Part shown: positions 498 to 36,311 of the stretch, piece after piece
How the letters are laid out: every line of letters starts with the position of its first letter
How positions within the stretch are numbered: the first letter of the stretch is position 1
Origin: Minisyncoccota bacterium
GTDB lineage: Bacteria > Patescibacteriota > Minisyncoccia > Phycocordibacterales > UBA12079
Assembly (NCBI GenBank): GCA_023140255.1
Contig: JAGLLX010000009.1
Span: forward strand, 1 to 58,759
DNA length: 58,759 nucleotides
Direction of reading: 5' to 3'
Translations under genes and position numbers: made by a program
The notes under the pieces: model-generated
The model's database searches: none
The model's input: only the letters and a program-made list of their open reading frames with translations
Told to the model about the DNA's origin: nothing

Positions 498-631
498 TAT
501 AGTGCAGTTAACTGCACTATATTTAAAATCAAAATTAAATAATTAAAAAACCTAAATCAATTATAGTGCAATCAATTGCATTATCCTAGAGTTATTATTC
601 CAGTTAACCTGCCTTTGCCAGTAGGCAGGTT
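498..631. repeat. Three consecutive palindromic hairpins
   Basis: tatagtgcagttaactgcactata (498..521), tatagtgcaatcaattgcattat (562..585), aacctgcct..aggcaggtt (606..631). Confidence 0.6.
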
Positions 632-671
632 GCACTATATTTTTTACAAAAAACTTGTTATCATTAAATAT

Positions 672-1628
672 ATGAAAATACAAAATCAAAAAGGGTTTAT
701 ACCAACATTAATATTAATAATTGTAGGAGTTTTGGTTGTTGGAAGTGGAGTAGTTTATTTATCAAAACCAAAACCAAAAGCGGTGTTAGGTGATTATTTA
801 TTATCGGCAGATATTGATGAAATTTGTAAAGGTGATGATAACTGTTACTATACGGCTGGAGTAGATCAATTATCAGTTGAATTTTGTGAGAAAATTACTG
901 AAGAAAGTTTACAGCAATATTGCAGTGATGGTGTAAATGAAAAATTAGCTACAAAAAATTTAAATGTTCAGTATTGCTTAAAAATGACTTATCCTGATGA
1001 ATGTATTAATGACCTTGCTTCAGTAACAGGAGATACTTCTATATGTCAATATAGTATATATGAAAAATGGAGGTGTTTAGATTATGCTAATTTAAGAGAT
1101 GAAATAAATCAAGCAATAGAAACAAAAGATCAAAAAATTTGTGAATCTTTAGATTTTTATCAAGATAAAGATCAGTGTTTTAGTGAATTAGGTATTGCAT
1201 TAAATAATCCTTTGTTTTGTAAATTAGCTAAAACACAAGAATACAGTAATTTTGATCAGGCACATTGTTATAAAGAGTTGGCTATATATAATTCTAATTC
1301 AGATTATTGTGGTAAGATAATGGATTTTGGTAATTGGGGAGAAGTGTGTTTAGATAATATAAAAATAATAGAAGGTTATACAAAACGATGCTCAGAAGAT
1401 ATTAAGACAAATAAAGATTTATGTTTACCTATGGCAGTGCAAATTTTTAAAAGTCTGGAAACTCATATGAGCTTTCAGTCTCGAAGGTATGCCCCTATTC
1501 AATTAAAATATAATTTTGATAAATTAAAAGCTGATTGTGATAAATTAGGTGTAGATAATGTTGTAAATGAGTGTAAAAAGATATATGAAGAAATTTATCA
1601 AAAAGAAAAAGATGAACTATCTTTATAA
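672..1628 (+). CDS. Membrane-anchored or secreted cysteine-rich repeat protein (unknown function)
   Basis: ATG at 672 is in frame within ORF 576..1628. N-terminal hydrophobic anchor MKIQNQKGFIPTLILIIVGVLVVGSG, then more than 25 Cys in loosely periodic C-x-C spacing. Confidence 0.65.
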   Translation: MKIQNQKGFIPTLILIIVGVLVVGSGVVYLSKPKPKAVLGDYLLSADIDEICKGDDNCYYTAGVDQLSVEFCEKITEESLQQYCSDGVNEKLATKNLNVQYCLKMTYPDECINDLASVTGDTSICQYSIYEKWRCLDYANLRDEINQAIETKDQKICESLDFYQDKDQCFSELGIALNNPLFCKLAKTQEYSNFDQAHCYKELAIYNSNSDYCGKIMDFGNWGEVCLDNIKIIEGYTKRCSEDIKTNKDLCLPMAVQIFKSLETHMSFQSRRYAPIQLKYNFDKLKADCDKLGVDNVVNECKKIYEEIYQKEKDELSL

Positions 1629-1658
1629 AGTTTTAAATATGATAATATAATTAAATAT

Positions 1659-1892
1659 ATGAAAATACAAAATCAAAAAGGTTTTATACCAACATTAATA
1701 TTAATAATTGTAGGAGTTTTGGTTGTCGGAAGTGGAGTAGTTTATTTATCAAAACCAACATTAGTTGATGATATAGAACACATTGCTTGTACAGAAGAAG
1801 CTAAATTATGTCCTGATGGTTCTGCTGTAGGTAGAATTGCTCCAGATTGTGAATTTGCAGAATGTCCAGAGTTTTCAGAATCTAATCAATAA
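1659..1892 (+). CDS. Small Cys-containing protein with the same N-terminal anchor as 672..1628
   Basis: 77-aa ORF whose first 33 aa are identical to those of the upstream gene; terminator follows. Confidence 0.6.
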   Translation: MKIQNQKGFIPTLILIIVGVLVVGSGVVYLSKPTLVDDIEHIACTEEAKLCPDGSAVGRIAPDCEFAECPEFSESNQ

Positions 1893-2684: not shown

Positions 2685-3179
2685 ATGGAAGAAGAAATAT
2701 CTTCAGTAATAGAATCTCAATCTCAACGAGTTCTTCAGCTTGAAGAATTTAACTTCAAAATTGATTCTACTGGATGGAAAAAGGTTTCTAATCACCAAGG
2801 AATCATTTGTCTTGAGAACCCAGAAGAGGATGTTTGGGAATACATCGGAGGAGTTCCTGAAGAGTTTATTGGACAACAATTGTTCACAAATTCAGCTGGA
2901 ATACGGGAAACAAAGAAAGTTGACAAACGAGTACCAACACATGAAGAATGGACTATTCTTGTAACAAAGAAAGAAGATATTCTAAATCTGGTTTTTGTAG
3001 GTTTTCGTGATATCGATGGTGTCTTCTACAAACTTTCTTTTGGTGCGGGTTTCTGGACGTCTTCTATCTCTAATTTAACTGCTTGGTACCGCTGCGTAGG
3101 CTTTAGTAACTCTATTGTTCATTGTGGCTCATACCACCAGTTGTACGGAATGTCTATTCGTTGCCTAATAAACGGATAA
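2685..3179 (+). CDS. FISUMP (Fibrobacter succinogenes major paralogous) / C-type-lectin-like domain protein, paralog 1
   Basis: Strong SD aaaggaggagg. C-terminal pattern VPTHEEW..GFRD..G.F....GAGFWTSS....AWYR.......YGMSIRCL. Confidence 0.75.
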   Translation: MEEEISSVIESQSQRVLQLEEFNFKIDSTGWKKVSNHQGIICLENPEEDVWEYIGGVPEEFIGQQLFTNSAGIRETKKVDKRVPTHEEWTILVTKKEDILNLVFVGFRDIDGVFYKLSFGAGFWTSSISNLTAWYRCVGFSNSIVHCGSYHQLYGMSIRCLING

Positions 3180-3219
3180 CTTTGTTTATTAGGTCTTTGC
3201 CTTTTCTTTTAATTTTATC

Positions 3220-3255
3220 AAAACCTCGGTTACAATCTGTAACCGAGGTTTTTTT
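3220..3255 (+). terminator. Intrinsic terminator of FISUMP paralog 1
   Basis: aacctcggttac/gtaaccgaggtt 12-bp stem plus T-run; nearly identical to 5641..5676. Confidence 0.8.
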
Positions 3256-3284
3256 AAATAGTAGTAGTCGGACTACTACTATTT
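3256..3284 (-). terminator. AAATAGTAGT..ACTACTATTT hairpin at the dnaB 3-prime end
   Basis: aaatagtagtagtcggactactactattt overlaps the dnaB stop; identical copy at 25828..25856. Confidence 0.6.
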
Positions 3285-4689
3285 AAAAACCATCACTCTC
3301 TTCTCCAGCTTGGTCTAAATCAAAATCATCAAAATCTGCTTTTTCTATACTTTGGAATGTAGCTTTTTTGTCGTTGAAGTTAAGATCAACTTTTCCAGTC
3401 GGTCCATTTCTATGTTTTTCAATCAAAATTTCAGCAAGGTTAGCTTTACCAGAACCGTCTTCTTTTTGTTCACGATGAATAAACATTACCACGTCAGCGT
3501 CTTGCTCAATAGCACCAGAGTCTCGTAGGTCTGATAGGCGAGGGCGACCACCACGACTTTCTACTGCACGAGATAATTGAGAAAGGGCAATAACAGGAAG
3601 ATCTAATTCTCTAGCCAAATGTTTTAGAGAACGAGAAATTTCAGTAATTTGTTGTACCATAGAATCAGATTTTTGAGTTTGGGTAGGAGACATTAATTGT
3701 AAATAATCAACTATAATTAAACTTAAATTGTGCTGCCTTTTTAATTTTCTAGCAACAGAACGAATATTCAAAATATTATTTGAAGCTTGGTCATCTATAA
3801 AAATAGGAGCTTTAGAAAGATTGTCTAAAGATTCTCTAATTAGCTTAAATTCATCATCAGTACTTAATTGCCCAGTTCTTAATTTCCAAGCATCTACTTG
3901 AGAATCAGCAGCTAACATTCTATCCACTAATTGCTGAGAACTCATTTCTAAAGAAAAAATCGCCACAGCTTTATTGTCTTTAACAGCTACTTTTCTAGCA
4001 ATATCCAAAGCCAAGGAAGTTTTTCCCATAGAAGGACGAGCCGCTAAAATAATTAAGTCTGAATTTTGAAAACCAGCTAATTTATTATCTAGTTCTTTAA
4101 AACCTGTTGGAACTCCTCGTAATTCTCCTTTAGTTTCATGTAATTTGTTTAATCTTTCCCAAGCTTCACCTAAAGCATCTTTTATTTTTACATAAGAACT
4201 AGACATTAAAGAGCTAGTAACTTCATAAATACTTTTTTCAGCTTTATCTAAAGCGTTCTCTAAAGATTCTTTTTCAGCATAACCTAATTCAGAAATTTGT
4301 TCAGATACATTGATTAAACGACGCATCATAAATTTTTTATGAACAATTTTTGCATAGTGTTTTGCATTAGCTGAAGAGGGAACTACATTAACTAATTCAT
4401 TTAAAAAATCATTTCCACCTATTTGTTCTAGTTGATTATGTTCTTTTAATTTTGTTGAAAGGGTTAGTAGATCAATTGGTTCTTTTTTAGAGAACAAATC
4501 CATCATTGTTTTATAAATTAAACGATGTTTTTCAGAGTAAAAACAATCTTCAGAAATTAATTCTAAGATATCAAAAATAACTTCAGATCGGAGCATAATA
4601 GAACCCAATAAAGCTTTTTCAGAATCAATATTTTGCGGAGGAACTCTTAGTCCAGACTTAGTCGCATAATCATTCGTAATTGTTTGCAT
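3283..4689 (-). CDS. dnaB: Replicative DNA helicase DnaB
   Basis: 468 aa; GVPTGFKELD, Walker A ARPSMGKT, DnaB C-terminal RecA-like core. Confidence 0.96.
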   Translation of the reverse strand: MQTITNDYATKSGLRVPPQNIDSEKALLGSIMLRSEVIFDILELISEDCFYSEKHRLIYKTMMDLFSKKEPIDLLTLSTKLKEHNQLEQIGGNDFLNELVNVVPSSANAKHYAKIVHKKFMMRRLINVSEQISELGYAEKESLENALDKAEKSIYEVTSSLMSSSYVKIKDALGEAWERLNKLHETKGELRGVPTGFKELDNKLAGFQNSDLIILAARPSMGKTSLALDIARKVAVKDNKAVAIFSLEMSSQQLVDRMLAADSQVDAWKLRTGQLSTDDEFKLIRESLDNLSKAPIFIDDQASNNILNIRSVARKLKRQHNLSLIIVDYLQLMSPTQTQKSDSMVQQITEISRSLKHLARELDLPVIALSQLSRAVESRGGRPRLSDLRDSGAIEQDADVVMFIHREQKEDGSGKANLAEILIEKHRNGPTGKVDLNFNDKKATFQSIEKADFDDFDLDQAGEESDGF

Positions 4690-4766
4690 ACTTGTATTCT
4701 ATCACAAATTAAAAAATGTAAATTTAGTAATTATGGGATAAAAAAGGGGATAGAAAGTGGAAAACT

Positions 4767-4797
4767 AAAATAGTAGACATCGGATGTCTACTATTTT
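4767..4797. repeat. TAGTAG-family hairpin
   Basis: aaaatagtagacatcggatgtctactatttt; same core as 58459..58485. Confidence 0.6.
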
Positions 4798-4856
4798 AGG
4801 GAGGAGGGTGAGGCTTTGTCGTCTCGCCCTTCTAATGTTAGCTATATGATAGCCTT

Positions 4857-4886
4857 AAATTAGTAGTAATTGGATTACTACTATTT
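4857..4886. repeat. TAGTAG-family hairpin
   Basis: aaattagtagtaattggattactactattt. Confidence 0.6.
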
Positions 4887-4894
4887 AAAACTAT

Positions 4895-4941: not shown

Positions 4942-4970
4942 TTGACAAATACAATATATTGTGATATTGT
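4942..4970 (+). promoter_or_regulatory. Sigma-70-type promoter for FISUMP paralog 2
   Basis: TTGACA, 17 nt, then TATTGT preceded by TG (extended -10). Confidence 0.5.
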
Positions 4971-5041
4971 TAAAACAGAATGTAAGGAAATCAATTAGGT
5001 TTTCTAAACAATAAAATATAAAAGAAAAAGGAGGAAGGAAG

Positions 5042-5593
5042 ATGGATAACAAAGAAATTTTTCGTTTGATTGAAGAAAATGAGAGTAATCTTCGTAAGAT
5101 TAAATCTTTGATGGAAGCGGAGGAGATTTCACAAAATCTTCAACTTGAAGACCACAACTTCAAAATTGATTCCACAGGGTGGAATCAATTAGTTGGTAAA
5201 GATGGAGAAGGGAACAAAATCATCTATCTTGAAAATCCTGAGAAGGATGTTTGGGAATATGTTAGTGGAGTTCCCAAAGAGCTTATTGGAGAACAGCTTT
5301 TCGCATTTCCTGCAACAATGCGAGAAACAAAGAGATCGGAAAAACAAGTCCCAACTAATCCGGAATGGGATATTCTCGCAAAAACAAAAGGAGATATTCC
5401 AAATCTAGTTTTTGCTGGCTATCGTGATACTAACGGCACCTTCTTCTACCTTTCTTCCGGCGCGTTCTTCTGGTCGTCTTCTATTTCTGGCTCTACTGCT
5501 TGGTACCGTTACCTGTACTCTAGCAACTCTGCTGTCTTCCGTATCGCGTACAATCAGGCGCACGGGGTGTCTATTCGTTGCCTAGAGAACTGA
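5042..5593 (+). CDS. FISUMP / C-type-lectin-like domain protein, paralog 2
   Basis: Strong SD aaaggaggaagg. C-terminus VPTNPEW..GYRD..G.F....GAFFWSSS....AWYR.......HGVSIRCL; paralog of 2685..3179. Confidence 0.75.
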   Translation: MDNKEIFRLIEENESNLRKIKSLMEAEEISQNLQLEDHNFKIDSTGWNQLVGKDGEGNKIIYLENPEKDVWEYVSGVPKELIGEQLFAFPATMRETKRSEKQVPTNPEWDILAKTKGDIPNLVFAGYRDTNGTFFYLSSGAFFWSSSISGSTAWYRYLYSSNSAVFRIAYNQAHGVSIRCLEN

Positions 5594-5640
5594 ACAGTAC
5601 TCGGAGTACTGATAATTTGTTCTTTTCTTTTAATTTTATC

Positions 5641-5676
5641 AAAACCTCGGTTACTATTTGTAACCGAGGTTTTTTA
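5641..5676 (+). terminator. Intrinsic terminator of FISUMP paralog 2
   Basis: aaaacctcggttactatttgtaaccgaggtttttt. Confidence 0.8.
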
Positions 5677-5717
5677 TTTTTAATTATAGTGCTTAGGGTG
5701 CTGTAATCTAAATAAGC

Positions 5718-5745
5718 TTGACAAATTTATTGTATGATGTATATT
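5718..5745 (+). promoter_or_regulatory. Sigma-70-type promoter with no downstream ORF
   Basis: TTGACA, 16 nt, TATATT; resembles the promoter at 4942..4970 (TTGACAAAT...ATTGT). Confidence 0.5.
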
Positions 5746-5751
5746 GTTATT

Positions 5752-5969
5752 TAGATTGAAAAAATGTCTTGTGACGCCGACAAAAGGTTTCTCCTCAAAT
5801 AATTAGGGCGGCTTTTGCAAGAGACAGCTCAGGCGTATGGTCAGCAGAAGAGTTAATTTTGTTGGACCTATCCCCCCCATCTGAAAACAGAGAGATTGAG
5901 GGACAGATAAGCCAGAGAGAGGAAGATTTTTTCATTGCCGCCAAGACCTTAGGGTTTTGGCGGTTTTTT
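5752..5969 (+). ncRNA. Candidate small RNA of unknown class
   Basis: Bounded by the promoter at 5718..5745 and an 11-bp stem terminator (ccgccaagacc ttag ggttttggcgg) plus T6 at 5938..5969. GC-richer than its surroundings, contains a C7 run, and has no SD-preceded ORF. Confidence 0.4.
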
Positions 5970-6029
5970 ATTATCCCTCTTTGGGAGTCAAAACCCTCGC
6001 CTTTAGGTGATAGTAGTTTAGTTCTTAAC

Positions 6030-6073
6030 ATATTATCATTCTAATATTCTTAAGAATGTTAGAATGATAATAT
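6030..6073. repeat. 44-nt near-perfect palindrome
   Basis: atattatcattctaa tattcttaagaatg ttagaatgataatat. Confidence 0.7.
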
Positions 6074-6083
6074 AAAGGGTAAT

Positions 6084-6117
6084 TAAAAAAACTCACACAG
6101 ATTTGTGTGAGTTTTTA
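6084..6117 (-). terminator. Bidirectional hairpin terminator after cysS
   Basis: A-run, actcacaca/tgtgtgagt stem, T-run. Confidence 0.75.
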
Positions 6118-6137
6118 AGTTTTTTAAAAAATAAAAA

Positions 6138-7553
6138 TTATTTTTTAAAAATTTGGGTTTGTGTTTCACTGTCTTTAATTAGATAACCTTCTGCTTCTAT
6201 TTCGTCTCTGATTCTGTCTGATTCTGCCCAGTTTTGATTTTCTCGAGCTAAGTTTCTTTCCAAAAATAAATCTTGAATATCTTGCGGTAAGTTTTTAATA
6301 TCCAATCCGTGATTAGAATCTTTATTTTCTTTTAAATTTAATCCCAAAACTTCATCAAAATCTAAAATAGTAGCTAATTTATCTTCATTAGTTAAATCAG
6401 ATTTTAATACTTCTGATATTAAGGCTAAGGCTTGAGGAATATTAAAATCATCTCCTAATTTTTCAATAAATTGATTTTTAAATTCTTCTGACACAGAACC
6501 AATTATTTCACCTAAATTTGATAGGGAATTGAGCAACCCTTCATAACCATTTTTTGCAGATTCTAAAGCTTCCCAAGTAAAATTTTGTTTTGAACGATAA
6601 TGCGCTTGAGAAAAGAAAAATCTTAAAACTAAAGGATTAAGATTTTTTTCTTTTAAATGATCAACATAAACAACATTTCCAAGAGACTTACTCATTTTTG
6701 TTTCATCAATTCCAAGATGTTCATTATGTATCCAATAATTAGCAAACATAACTCCATTAGCTGATTCGCTTTGAGCTATTTCGTTAGAATGGTGTATAGA
6801 AATATGCTCTACTCCTCCCATATGAATATCAATTGTATCTCCTAAATGTTTTTTTGCCATAGCAGAACATTCTATGTGCCAGCCAGGAAATCCCTCTCCC
6901 CAAGGAGAATCCCAAGTTTGCAAAGCATTTTCATGCACTCCCATTTTAAAAAACCAAATTGCAAAATCCTCAGTGTTTTTTTTCTGAGAGTCTGTAACAT
7001 CTCCAGTTCCAGCTCCTGATTTTAGGTCTTCAAGTTTTTGCCCAGATAATTCAGTGTAATTTTTAGCTTTTGAGATATCAAAATAAATAGCAGAATCTGT
7101 TTGATAAGCAAAATCTTTTTCTATCAAAACCTGAACCATATCAATCATTTCTTGAATATAATCAGTAGCTCTACATCTAGTGGTTGGTTCCAGAATATTT
7201 AATTCTTTCGTGTCGTCTTCATAAAATTTTATATATTTATCTGCAATTTCAGTAGGGGAAAGTCCTTCTGTTTTTACTCCTTTTTCCATTCGGTCTTCGC
7301 CCAAATCAGCATCTCCTTCATTATCTCCAGTTAAATGACCCACATCTGTATAATTGGAAATAAAATTTACATCATAATTTAAGTATTCTAAAGAACGACG
7401 AATAGAATCAGCACAGAAAGCACCTCTTAAATTTCCGATATGTTGTCTAGAATAAACAGTTGGCCCACAATAATAGAAAGAAACCCTTTCATCTTCTAGC
7501 GGTTTAAATTCTTCTTTTTCTCTTCCTAAAGTATTGTAAATTTTTAAAACCAT
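6138..7553 (-). CDS. cysS: Cysteine--tRNA ligase
   Basis: 471 aa; HIGNLRG (HIGH-type) and KMSKSLGN motifs, class I CysRS layout. Confidence 0.95.
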   Translation of the reverse strand: MVLKIYNTLGREKEEFKPLEDERVSFYYCGPTVYSRQHIGNLRGAFCADSIRRSLEYLNYDVNFISNYTDVGHLTGDNEGDADLGEDRMEKGVKTEGLSPTEIADKYIKFYEDDTKELNILEPTTRCRATDYIQEMIDMVQVLIEKDFAYQTDSAIYFDISKAKNYTELSGQKLEDLKSGAGTGDVTDSQKKNTEDFAIWFFKMGVHENALQTWDSPWGEGFPGWHIECSAMAKKHLGDTIDIHMGGVEHISIHHSNEIAQSESANGVMFANYWIHNEHLGIDETKMSKSLGNVVYVDHLKEKNLNPLVLRFFFSQAHYRSKQNFTWEALESAKNGYEGLLNSLSNLGEIIGSVSEEFKNQFIEKLGDDFNIPQALALISEVLKSDLTNEDKLATILDFDEVLGLNLKENKDSNHGLDIKNLPQDIQDLFLERNLARENQNWAESDRIRDEIEAEGYLIKDSETQTQIFKK

Positions 7554-14537: not shown

Positions 14538-14606
14538 TTAAAACAATATTAAACAGTATAAAACACCTTGGTTTTTAACACCTTTACCCATAACCACAAA
14601 AATAAA

Positions 14607-15005
14607 ATGAATTTAATTTATATAATAATTGCCGCAATCATTGGCTATATAATCGGAAAAAATAATTCTTCCAAAACTTCTCAATCACAAATAAGTCCTT
14701 TTGAAGAAATGGACGACACTGAATTAGAAAAGATGCAGACTAAGACAAAAGAAACCATCTCACAAAGAACTGAAGAACGAAAAGAAAAAATACTGGAATA
14801 TATAAAAAAAGAAAAAGCTCATCAAGAAGCTCTGGCTAACTGTAGTATAGAAGAAAGAAAAGAAGGAGTTGATCGTAAAGAAATAGAAGACCTACTAGAC
14901 ATATCAAGAAGTACCGCTTTAAAATATCTAAACGAATTAGAAAAGGAGCAAAAAATCACCCAATCCTCCCCCACCGGCCGCACCGTCCATTATACTATTA
15001 ACTAA
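14607..15005 (+). CDS. Hypothetical TM protein with a C-terminal winged-helix-like segment
   Basis: ATG at 14607 (the track start is TTG at 14568); MNLIYIIIAAIIGYIIG TM, charged coiled region, ISRSTALKYLNELEKEQKI HTH-like. Confidence 0.5.
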   Translation: MNLIYIIIAAIIGYIIGKNNSSKTSQSQISPFEEMDDTELEKMQTKTKETISQRTEERKEKILEYIKKEKAHQEALANCSIEERKEGVDRKEIEDLLDISRSTALKYLNELEKEQKITQSSPTGRTVHYTIN

Positions 15006-15015
15006 ATAAGGTAAT

Positions 15016-35273: not shown

Positions 35274-36311
35274 CTATTTTACATCTTTTATTAATTTTAT
35301 CAACAGTAATTCTAGAGGTAATTGTGGAATATAAGAAAGTTTAATCTGAGAAGAACTTTCTATTAATTCTATTAATGTCTGAGAATTTAAATTTGAATCT
35401 TTATCTTCAGCTAATTTTTTAATAAATTCAAAATCTTTTTCTGAAAAATCATTTTGAATATCCTTAATCATATCTTTAGCAAAACGAGTTAATAAAATAG
35501 CTCTAATTTTATGCATTATTAATTTTAGAAACATTTGAGTGTCAGTACTATTTTCCAAGGCTTCTTGAATCGCACTTAATCCCCTTTCTAAATCTTTTTC
35601 TGCAATAGCCAAAATAAAGTTATTTACCAAATCTCCTTTAGGAGCTCCTGTAATTTTTTCTACTTCTTGAAGGCTTATTTTTGAGTCACTAGAAGTTGAA
35701 ATAACTTTTTGTAGTATTCCTAATGTATCTCGAAATGAACCTTCTCCTAACAAAGCAATTAAATCTTCTGCCCCGTCTTCTAATTTCAATTTTTCTTTTT
35801 TACAAACATCTAAAATAGCCTTTTTTAGAATTTCTAAAGAAGGTTTTTTAAAGGTAAAAGTCTGACATCTTGATAAGATAGTATCTGGTATTTTTTCAAT
35901 TTCAGTTGTAGCTAGAATAAAAACAACATGCTTAGGAGGTTCTTCTAATGTCTTTAAGAGTGCGTTAAAAGCTTCTTTGGTAAGCATATGAACCTCATCT
36001 ATAATATATACTTTGTACGGGGATTCAAAAGGTAAAACCTTAACTGCTTCACGAAGCTCTCTGATGTCATCAATTCCTCGATTAGAAGCAGCGTCAATTT
36101 CGTTTAAATCATTAACTGAACATTTTATTTCTTGAGCTAAAAGTCTGGCTACAGAAGTTTTTCCTGTTCCTCTAGTGCCTGAGAATAAATAAGCATGAGC
36201 TATATTCTCTAAAGAAATAGCTTTTTGGATAGTATCTGTGATATGTTCTTGTCCTAAAACTTCTGAAAATTTTTGCGGACGATATTTCCTGTATAGTACG
36301 AGATTAGTCAT
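35274..36311 (-). CDS. dnaX: DNA polymerase III subunit gamma/tau (short form)
   Basis: LYRKYRPQKF, Walker A GTRGTGKTS, DEVHML; ATG at 36311 preferred over the TTG at 36317. Confidence 0.9.
   Translation of the reverse strand: MTNLVLYRKYRPQKFSEVLGQEHITDTIQKAISLENIAHAYLFSGTRGTGKTSVARLLAQEIKCSVNDLNEIDAASNRGIDDIRELREAVKVLPFESPYKVYIIDEVHMLTKEAFNALLKTLEEPPKHVVFILATTEIEKIPDTILSRCQTFTFKKPSLEILKKAILDVCKKEKLKLEDGAEDLIALLGEGSFRDTLGILQKVISTSSDSKISLQEVEKITGAPKGDLVNNFILAIAEKDLERGLSAIQEALENSTDTQMFLKLIMHKIRAILLTRFAKDMIKDIQNDFSEKDFEFIKKLAEDKDSNLNSQTLIELIESSSQIKLSYIPQLPLELLLIKLIKDVK

Follow-up and report, generated by a model that had tools for sequence, protein, structure and literature searches.

Diversity-generating retroelements (DGRs) rewrite a defined portion of a target gene: a reverse transcriptase (RT), aided by an Avd-type accessory protein, converts template repeat (TR) RNA into cDNA and misincorporates only opposite template adenines. 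The cDNA then replaces the variable region (VR) of the target, with a 3' boundary that corresponds to the end of the VR and with the assistance of a hairpin located just downstream. DGRs are common in candidate phyla radiation (CPR) bacteria; VRs of the FISUMP/DUF1566 type make up about 14% of the catalogued DGRs. At the mtd target site of Bordetella phage BPP-1, the stem of this hairpin is GC-rich and carries a 4-nt loop with a sequence-dependent role. We analyzed a 58,759-nt stretch of DNA from Minisyncoccota bacterium (GenBank assembly GCA_023140255.1, contig JAGLLX010000009.1), hereafter the window, which encodes two related FISUMP-like proteins, paralog 1 and paralog 2 (Table 1). A reading of the sequence alone had proposed that the 3' end of the paralog 2 gene is the VR of a DGR whose RT and TR lie outside the window. 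Comparison with related sequences indicates that the segment 5410..5592 is very probably a VR written by a DGR. Our complete interpretation, to which we assign a probability of roughly 0.6, is that paralog 2 carries a DGR-made VR and is a remote target with ongoing or recent homing, whereas homing no longer renews paralog 1, the older copy.

DGRs in CPR bacteria, VRs of the FISUMP/DUF1566 type and remote targets have all been documented previously (PMC5758913, PMC8144416), and surveys anchored on RT genes are, by their own statement, blind to remote targets (Roux et al. 2021, PMC8144416). Targets of category 'd' (CLec2) have VRs that overlap DUF1566, DUF823 or Fib_succ_major domains, as in LdtA of Legionella (Wu et al. 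2018, PMC5758913), and about half of the targets in this category are short, domain-only proteins (PMC5758913). Paralog 2 resembles these targets in showing weak, mixed matches to PF09603 and PF07603 (Lcl_C, formerly DUF1566) over the VR, but differs from LdtA, which is a surface lipoprotein, in that its family has no signal or lipobox discernible by eye and starts with a 30-residue helix. The DGR of Treponema denticola has seven extra, non-adjacent targets (Wu et al. 2018, PMC5758913; PMC4891356). In BPP-1, both the hairpin and the initiation of mutagenic homing (IMH) site are required for efficient homing, and stem structure is more important than stem sequence (Guo et al. 2011, PMC3240598).

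Adenine depletion in the tail of paralog 2

Composition changes abruptly inside the paralog 2 gene, and the counts on which the sequence-only reading relied were all reproduced on recount. There are 17 A among the 148 nt at 5435..5582 (11.5%), whereas the gene opens with 149 nt that contain 57 A (38%). Of the 49 codons within 5435..5581, 21 have C at the third position and not one has A. The sole A-ending codon in the last 50 is CTA at 5582-5584, as against 43 in the first 131 codons. This region is the most A-poor 148 nt on the + strand of the entire window (minimum of 17 at 5434-5436; mean 51.3, standard deviation 9.5), and + strand stretches of this length with 25 or fewer A occur in only two other places, one of which is the tail of paralog 1. 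At four-fold degenerate sites of paralog 2, A is found at 16 of the 49 sites in the head but at only 1 of the 27 sites in the tail (Fisher p 0.0035), so that the avoidance of A is not an amino-acid effect. Other A- or T-poor stretches of the window lie at 14,560-15,010 and at 36,300, 43,700, 46,100 and 47,200; the one at 14,560-15,010 was considered as a TR and rejected because it codes for a Lys/Glu-rich protein.

The same footprint is present throughout the family. The homologues of paralog 2 that we identified in JGI, ENA and IMG/VR are small proteins of 160-200 aa, with at least 425 relatives at E<=1e-5, most of them on contigs of 0.6-2 kb; where the contigs are long enough, they look phage-like, encoding terminase, RecA, SNF2 helicase or DnaB-like helicase. 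Across 45 family genes, A-ending codons make up a fraction of 0.42 in the head but only 0.07 over the last 50 codons. When the four-fold sites of 41 distinct family genes are pooled, the share of A is 0.33 in the head and 0.06 in the tail, and that of T barely moves (0.41 vs 0.39), C and G filling the difference. Because the depletion hits A and spares T, amino-acid content and a plain GC shift do not account for it, and a template in which all adenines are mutagenized does: the non-variable positions of a VR must be free of A, which leaves a segment that is poor in A and rich in NNC and NNT codons.

An account that dispenses with the retroelement would attribute the segment to the amino-acid make-up of the C-terminal half of FISUMP domains, to a local codon preference, or to a horizontally acquired or recombined 3' segment of higher GC content. 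Such an account could draw on the abundance of S, F, Y, G, W and C in the tail, residues with codons that are A-poor at positions 1-2, and on the GC content of the tail, which reaches 0.5 in a genome of 29% GC. Nevertheless, the depletion persists at four-fold sites, is specific for A, and recurs in homologues from genomes of 29-43% GC; furthermore, the adenines that do remain in the tail lie almost solely where verified TRs have adenines, and close relatives within the family vary in the manner of DGR targets, as described in the next section. Taken together, these observations make an origin without a retroelement very improbable.

Verified CPR cassettes and the relatives of paralog 2

A scaffold pattern derived from the invariant part of the tail (GCTTGG NNN CGN NNC YTG ... 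NCT GTC NNC CG) matched 11 loci in GTDB genomes, 6 of which contain two copies 0.8-2 kb apart. The metagenome-assembled genomes (MAGs) that harbor these six pairs are labelled Patescibacteria, Paceibacterota or Saccharibacteria, two being named only 'bacterium'. In each pair, the codons that vary in one copy are AAC or AAT in the other. Over the scored span, 24 of 25, 25 of 27 and 14 of 15 mismatches are located at the adenines of one copy in three pairs, and in the other three, for which the span was limited to the repeat, this holds for all 16, 21 and 19 mismatches. RT open reading frames (ORFs) with the YxDD and LPIGNxTxQ motifs adjoin 5 of the 6 TRs, and Avd-like ORFs are present at 3; the RT of locus L083 has PF00078 on record and the source name 'RNA-directed DNA polymerase [Patescibacteria group bacterium]'. 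The canonical order, with a Fib_succ_major target followed by bAvd and then the RT, is seen at two more loci. The closest homologues and this DGR lineage also suggest that the window comes from a CPR organism. The RTs of the verified cassettes presumably belong, judging from taxonomy, to the CPR-restricted DGR clade 2 of Roux et al. 2021 (PMC8144416), and the cassettes correspond to category 'd' (CLec2) of PMC5758913. In one of them, L085 (~5200..5700; GTDB 'Bacterium isolate M50B90'), the RT frame appears disrupted, with no ORF of 120 aa or more, the TR and VR being otherwise intact, so that DGR decay may be under way at this locus.

The tail of paralog 2 aligns without gaps to all six TR/VR pairs. 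We defined TR-adenine columns as those with A in at least 2 of the 6 verified TRs, which applies to 49 of the 166 columns of 5418..5583; 21 of the 22 adenines of paralog 2 in this span are found in such columns (hypergeometric p 3e-12), the exception being 5573, and 66 of the 78 conserved scaffold bases are matched. The likeness to the CPR cassettes with Fib_succ_major targets (L082-L087, L088-L090) thus includes the gap-free scaffold and the AAC/AAT columns, and it extends to the C-terminal motif ...FWSSS.SG..AW.R.L.S..S.V.R....A.G.S.RCL.., to a VR that ends at the stop codon and, in several cassettes, to a hairpin just 3' of the VR. The differences are in arrangement and protein architecture: in the cassettes, the target is located 0.8-2 kb from the TR, with the RT beside the TR in 5 of 6, and the targets are proteins of 267-508 aa with, where readable, a hydrophobic N-terminus, whereas paralog 2 is far shorter, lacks a hydrophobic N-terminus, and is surrounded by DNA free of any TR or RT over at least 15 kb on the upstream side and 62 kb on the downstream side.

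The limits of the VR and the list of variable codons follow from these related TRs rather than from the cognate one. The codons predicted to be diversified are those of Y127, D129, T130, N131, F135, Y136, S139, G140, F142, T152, Y155, Y157, Y159, N162, A164, F166, I168, Y170, N171 and H174. At the nucleotide level, roughly 35 positions in 5420-5562 are predicted to vary, namely, bases 1 and 2 of the codons that start at 5420, 5426, 5444, 5447, 5459, 5465, 5495, 5504, 5510, 5516, 5525, 5537, 5543, 5549 and 5561, together with 5429, 5433, 5456 and 5531. A DGR acting on this gene would rewrite some 16-20 codons, mostly AAC or AAT in the template, within the C-terminal half of a small binding domain of the FISUMP/Lcl_C type. 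At the 3' end of the VR, a single column, 5586, the middle base of GAG, is A in most of the verified TRs; up to the Cys codon (5581), this end is almost invariant across the family, and 5566..5584 is identical in paralog 1.

Family genes with nearly identical heads differ from each other several-fold more in the tail. The genes in L012 and L015 differ at 5 sites in the head vs 20 in the tail, and those in L017 and L022 at 7 vs 32, the tail differences falling mostly at codon positions 1-2. In the alignments, NNC or NNT codons that assume many values (for example AAC, TAC, GAC, CTC, AGC, GGC) lie among codons that show no change, not even a synonymous one. In a group of six genes, TR-adenine columns account for 31 of the 45 variable columns vs 4 of the 121 invariant ones (odds ratio 65, p 1e-18). 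Four independent lines thus speak for the DGR interpretation that had been advanced from the sequence alone: the family-wide avoidance of A, but not of T, at synonymous sites; variation mostly at positions 1-2 of NNC/NNT codons within an identical scaffold; the gap-free alignment to verified TR/VR pairs; and a hairpin past the stop codon like those at several verified VRs of this lineage. It had also been argued that A-poor orthologues in DGR-free genomes would point to mere amino-acid or codon bias. Orthologues do share the A-poor composition, but they also show hypervariation of the DGR type and one contig carries a TR itself, and therefore that argument does not apply.

The contig in question, L093 (ENA ERZ27315977 k141_174770, 705 nt), contains a target gene of this family up to GCTTGG and continues from there as a TR, at ~596-705, which reads AAA CGC AAC CTG AAC ... 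AAC GGT TTC TCG GTT CGC TGT TTT TAG GACTGGTGAATTATT and has the 3' flank that characterizes the TRs of L083 and L085. This contig, which comes from one 90%-identity cluster, is either an assembly chimera or an unmutated homing product; in both cases, a matching TR exists in that community.

Even distant relatives share the scaffold codons at the nucleotide level, and, the hypervariable sites notwithstanding, the nucleotide identity to these relatives is greater in the tail (0.64-0.72) than in the core of the head (0.54-0.65). A structured RNA or a regulatory element within the 3' coding region might impose such a constraint and, with it, the paucity of A. However, no Rfam family matches the region (the window was scanned together with 5600..6140, with nothing relevant detected), the scaffold is interrupted every few codons by positions at which each of the four bases occurs, as a base-paired structure would not permit, and the same scaffold serves as a TR beside RT genes. 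Hence, this possibility appears extremely remote.

Two genomes show how a target and a DGR can be separated in this lineage. In Paceibacterota STF1_252, the VR of L081 differs from the TR of L086, on another contig, solely at TR adenines, so that L081 is a verified, true remote target of this TR. The remote targets of Treponema denticola are of the same kind, with a VR-containing gene far from the RT that is served in trans, a status that paralog 2 would share. In MAG137 (Patescibacteria), a full-length homologue of paralog 2 (52% identity) is encoded on one contig and a DGR on another, and the 23 nt around the stop codon of the homologue are identical to those of the DGR's own VR. Compared to the TR of MAG137, however, the VR of the homologue shows 23 non-adenine mismatches, and thus it is not currently served by that TR.

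Template, reverse transcriptase and possible present activity

Genes of this family seem to be located consistently away from RTs. No RT-like ORF was detected in 26 family loci of at least 7 kb (307 kb in total, some redundant) by a scan that misses only one of the DGR loci with an intact RT, and within-locus searches of 23 family loci of at least 3 kb yielded no TR. For the phage group, the predicted exact TR had no match in IMG/VR, where the scaffold pattern retrieved VRs only. Given that paralog 2 belongs to a family that is always found apart from RTs, we infer a cognate TR and RT at some other location of the genome; paralog 2 would then be a remote target. Homing at paralog 2 would then be ongoing or recent, and we lean, if only modestly, towards a working remote TR and RT that still serve its VR.

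A second copy in L042 and L043 was considered as a TR and rejected, being a tandem paralogous gene. Such tandem small FISUMP genes are found in phage-like contigs, namely, L042 (5919..6440 and 7023..7544) and L045 (two copies within 1,350 nt). The L042 pair differs at 15 sites in the heads and 27 in the tails, and mirrors the two-copy layout of the window.

Several results weigh against a template and an RT that are still at work in this organism. We detected no TR or RT in 78 kb around paralog 2, that is, in the window plus 10 kb on each side (positions 100,994-178,856 of the 189,560-bp ENA contig ZHAN22-2_SAMN18200496 scaffold_9), using an RT motif scan that does recover the RTs of control DGR loci; the 10 kb beyond each end of the window contain housekeeping genes only. 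Within the window, as the sequence-only reading had noted, no RT motif and no repeat with A-specific mismatches could be found: on both strands, the only repeat of 5420..5600 is paralog 1, whose mismatches are not A-specific. A TR-model IUPAC pattern, in which each base is either itself or A, had no match among the GTDB representatives or in IMG/VR, but it also missed the VR, the genome of the window being absent from both collections and likewise from JGI. A profile built from 5 RTs has at least 7,939 relatives, and among the best 120, which we examined, none could be linked to this genome: none is on the 189,560-bp contig and none is accompanied by an in-frame TR peptide matching the scaffold; the two that were looked up (P0094 and P0081) come from other samples. 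Six contigs encode the paralog 2 protein, without a single difference between them; 5 of these are the same long contigs with dnaB and cysS, and the 90% cluster of the protein has a single member, so that no consensus-level variation is seen between these samples. TR-adenine columns are not over-represented among the sites at which paralogs 1 and 2 differ (p 0.2); therefore, these genes are old duplicates rather than two recent outputs of one TR. Finally, a TTCGAC..TTTGAC motif that commonly follows the VRs of this lineage is absent at both paralogs.

Recent or ongoing homing is favored by a break in the SAMN18200494 assembly, which stops within the VR at 5494, exactly where a long scaffold block gives way to a variable codon; this is the same place where L093 passes from VR to TR. 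A VR/TR branch or heterogeneity of the VR would produce a break of this kind. When a variant VR beyond this break was sought via cysS, nothing was on record. The contig from this sample (L009/L073) differs from the window at six positions (2055, 2075, 2076, 2078, 2821 and 2869), all of them A in the contig, four clustered in recR, where the ORF is truncated, and two in the head of paralog 1; these differences may be an artefact, with ambiguity codes stored as A, instead of true variation.

Paralog 1 provides a contrast within the same genome. Its VR matches 48 of the 78 conserved scaffold bases, has A at 5 of 23 four-fold sites, and contains scaffold adenines at 3032, 3057, 3072, 3073, 3077, 3098, 3149, 3150 and 3156; judged by these features, it looks like an older copy that is no longer refreshed. 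Given that paralog 1 has decayed and paralog 2 has not, paralog 2 was refreshed after the duplication. We also considered paralog 1 as the TR, or as a sister VR produced from one TR, and rejected both roles, because the differences between the paralogs are not enriched at TR-adenine columns and because 6 of the 7 synonymous third-position differences are C/T transitions.

The observations that weigh against present activity can be accommodated if paralog 2 carries an orphan or fossil VR, written by a DGR fairly recently, after which the TR and RT were lost from the genome. In a variant of this scenario, the TR and RT were never resident, and homing was carried out by a retroelement on a phage or another mobile element that is now gone. 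The gene would then be subject to ordinary mutation, with paralog 1 as a preview of its later state. The lack of a TR or RT in the 78 kb, the identity of the protein in 6 of 6 assemblies together with its singleton cluster, and the clear decay of paralog 1 are all compatible with such a history; the small gene of MAG137, which disagrees at 23 non-adenine positions with the single TR detected there, demonstrates that such genes can lack a matching TR, and the apparently disrupted RT frame next to the TR in L085 suggests that DGRs decay in this lineage. Conversely, in a genome of 29% GC, the presence of A at only 1 of 27 four-fold sites of the tail and a single scaffold adenine leave little time since homing, and the paralogs are old duplicates (~70-80% nucleotide identity) of which only paralog 1 has decayed, indicating that the DGR long outlived the duplication. 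On balance, we regard an orphan VR as possible but unlikely, and modestly favor a remote TR and RT that still act on paralog 2.

The inverted repeat one nucleotide past the stop codon, reported in the sequence-only reading, is real. As DNA, it folds at -5.1 kcal/mol (z -4.5), the stem being 7 bp long and the loop 3 nt; none of 200 shuffled sequences was equally stable. It is a candidate cruciform element that might assist retrohoming, and its position directly 3' of the VR is the same as that of the inverted repeat at the mtd site of BPP-1, although the stem here is of mixed composition, the loop is shorter, and the role is putative. Hairpins also follow the stop codon at the verified VRs of L082 (-15.4 kcal/mol) and L084 (-27.7), and at a paralog-2-type gene in L077 (-20.1). 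Because many family members lack a hairpin after the stop codon, and because the TTCGAC motif is missing here, the hairpin is supporting rather than decisive evidence for a DGR target.

The motif itself, (A/T)TTCGAC-N3-4-TTTGAC-N3-TTTGAC, is located directly 3' of the VR stop codon at many VRs of this DGR lineage, namely, in L083 (from ~4553), L085, L087, L082, L077, L003, L036/L041/L042/L050, L038 and L067. It follows VRs both in cellular cassettes and in the phage-like small-protein genes, but does not follow TRs, and could be a lineage-specific target-recognition element.

The protein, its neighborhood and a family of small targets

By sequence, paralog 2 is related to the FISUMP family without being a member by the curated thresholds: it scores 21.6 bits against PF09603 (cut-off 33.9; residues 120-181) and 26.1 bits against TIGR02145 (cut-off 41.65), in both cases matching the C-terminal half of the model only. 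Paralog 1 likewise shows sub-threshold matches to these Fib_succ_major models in the C-terminal half. Within the family, all 106 aligned members match PF09603 at E<=0.01, and 49 match PF07603. The N-terminus of paralog 2 is a hydrophilic helix (residues 3-31) without a hydrophobic stretch, and that of paralog 1 is also a helix and not a signal peptide; thus, as far as can be judged from these features, paralog 2 and its family are likely to be cytoplasmic. An AlphaFold2 model obtained with the 106-sequence alignment (predicted local distance difference test score, pLDDT, of 93) consists of the helix 3-31 followed by a mixed alpha/beta domain.

The sequence-only reading grouped the domain with C-type-lectin folds, such as those of the DGR variable proteins Mtd, TvpA and TaqVP. 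This agrees with the literature and Pfam, where FISUMP-type domains are so classified (PMC5758913), but the structure search of the PDB did not confirm it. The best Foldseek match in the PDB had an E-value of 0.5 and a TM-score below 0.2, with no CLec protein among the 50 matches listed, and when PDB sequences were searched with a profile, no match had an E-value under 0.6. Against BFVD, the Foldseek matches were two FISUMP proteins of phages (E 2e-4 and 5e-3), plus a poxvirus C-type lectin that matched only weakly (E 0.13). Given the confidence of the model and the poor best match in the PDB, this FISUMP-type variable domain seems not to be well represented among solved structures.

Paralogs 1 and 2 flank dnaB, each as a complete duplicated cassette that includes a leader and a terminator, and paralog 2 lies between dnaB and cysS. 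The 5' leaders (4971-5028 for paralog 2 and 2617-2674 for paralog 1) are 88% identical and the terminators (3201-3254 for paralog 1 and 5622-5675 for paralog 2) 96% identical, whereas the coding regions share only ~70-80% nucleotide identity throughout.

Table 1. Coordinates of the paralog 1 and paralog 2 genes and associated elements in the window
Feature	Position	Strand	Description
Paralog 2 coding sequence	5042..5593	+	183-aa ORF, TGA at 5591-5593; FISUMP/Lcl_C-type domain after an N-terminal helix
Inferred VR of paralog 2	5410..5592	+	Limits correspond to the ends of TR/VR homology in verified CPR cassettes (gap-free alignment)
Invariant 3' end of the VR	5563..5592	+	CGGGGTGTCTATTCGTTGCCTAGAGAACTG; where the IMH of a DGR target lies (definition of the IMH requires the TR)
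Inverted repeat/hairpin	5595..5611	+	CAGTACTC-G-GAGTACTG; one base past the TGA stop codon
Promoter-like site of paralog 2	4942-4970	+	TTGACA-17-TG-TATTGT; followed by the 5' leader to 5028
Intrinsic-terminator-like hairpin	5641..5681	+	With T-run; end of the paralog 2 transcription unit
Paralog 1 coding sequence	2685..3179	+	164 aa; 56% protein identity to paralog 2
Putative decayed VR of paralog 1	2993..3175	+	9 scaffold-column adenines, weak scaffold match
AT-rich inverted repeat	3163..3194	+	CCTAATAAAC...GTTTATTAGG; across the paralog 1 stop codon

Other elements are found in this neighborhood. A 36-nt palindromic element with perfect 17-19-bp arms (AAATAGTAG...CTACTATTT) occurs three times, at 3253..3288, 4765..4800 and 4855..4890; the three copies surround dnaB, one of them directly after the paralog 1 terminator, and could be bidirectional terminators or elements similar to repetitive extragenic palindromes (REP-like). 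A 113-nt direct repeat (659..771 and 1646..1758, 97% identical) encodes the same N-terminal signal or transmembrane segment, MKIQNQKGFIPTLILIIVGVLVVGSGVVYLSKP, in the adjacent ORFs 576..1628 and 1659..1892. Downstream of paralog 2, the segment 5718..5972 (+ strand) begins with a strong promoter-like site, TTGACA-16-TATATT (11/12), and ends in a terminator-like hairpin (5937-5964) with a T-run. The enclosed ~215 nt have a GC content of 43-47%, compared to 29% for the window, and an RNA fold z of -2.9; there is no Rfam match to this segment, and the ENA annotation places a 78-aa ORF on the opposite strand, at 5795-6031. This segment may be an undescribed small RNA encoded immediately 3' of paralog 2.

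With regard to the window itself, our result is largely confirmatory, DGRs being common in CPR and remote targets being known. It does, however, show that a VR can be recognized with high confidence from sequence alone, without its TR, by combining A depletion at synonymous sites with gap-free comparison to related TRs, and this combination provides a way to find remote or orphan targets. In addition, the gene belongs to a large, apparently undescribed family of heavily diversified proteins of 160-200 aa, none adjoining an RT, which are encoded both in CPR chromosomes and in phage-like contigs.

The 3' flank and the VR scaffold of this family resemble those of the resident CPR DGRs, and in the phage-like contigs the genes are located near replication and recombination genes. 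Speculatively, the small, signal-less FISUMP proteins might form a separate class of DGR targets without a retroelement of their own, diversified in trans and possibly across replicons, although we consider this doubtful. An equally tentative extension would have a phage gene rewritten by the DGR of the host, or a host gene by that of a phage. If correct, this would imply a hypervariable intracellular binder deployed in phage-host conflict, and a class of targets that RT-anchored surveys miss by design. More generally, if the family is served in trans, the reach of DGRs in these organisms with tiny genomes would be wider, and their ligands would be expected inside the cell rather than at its surface.

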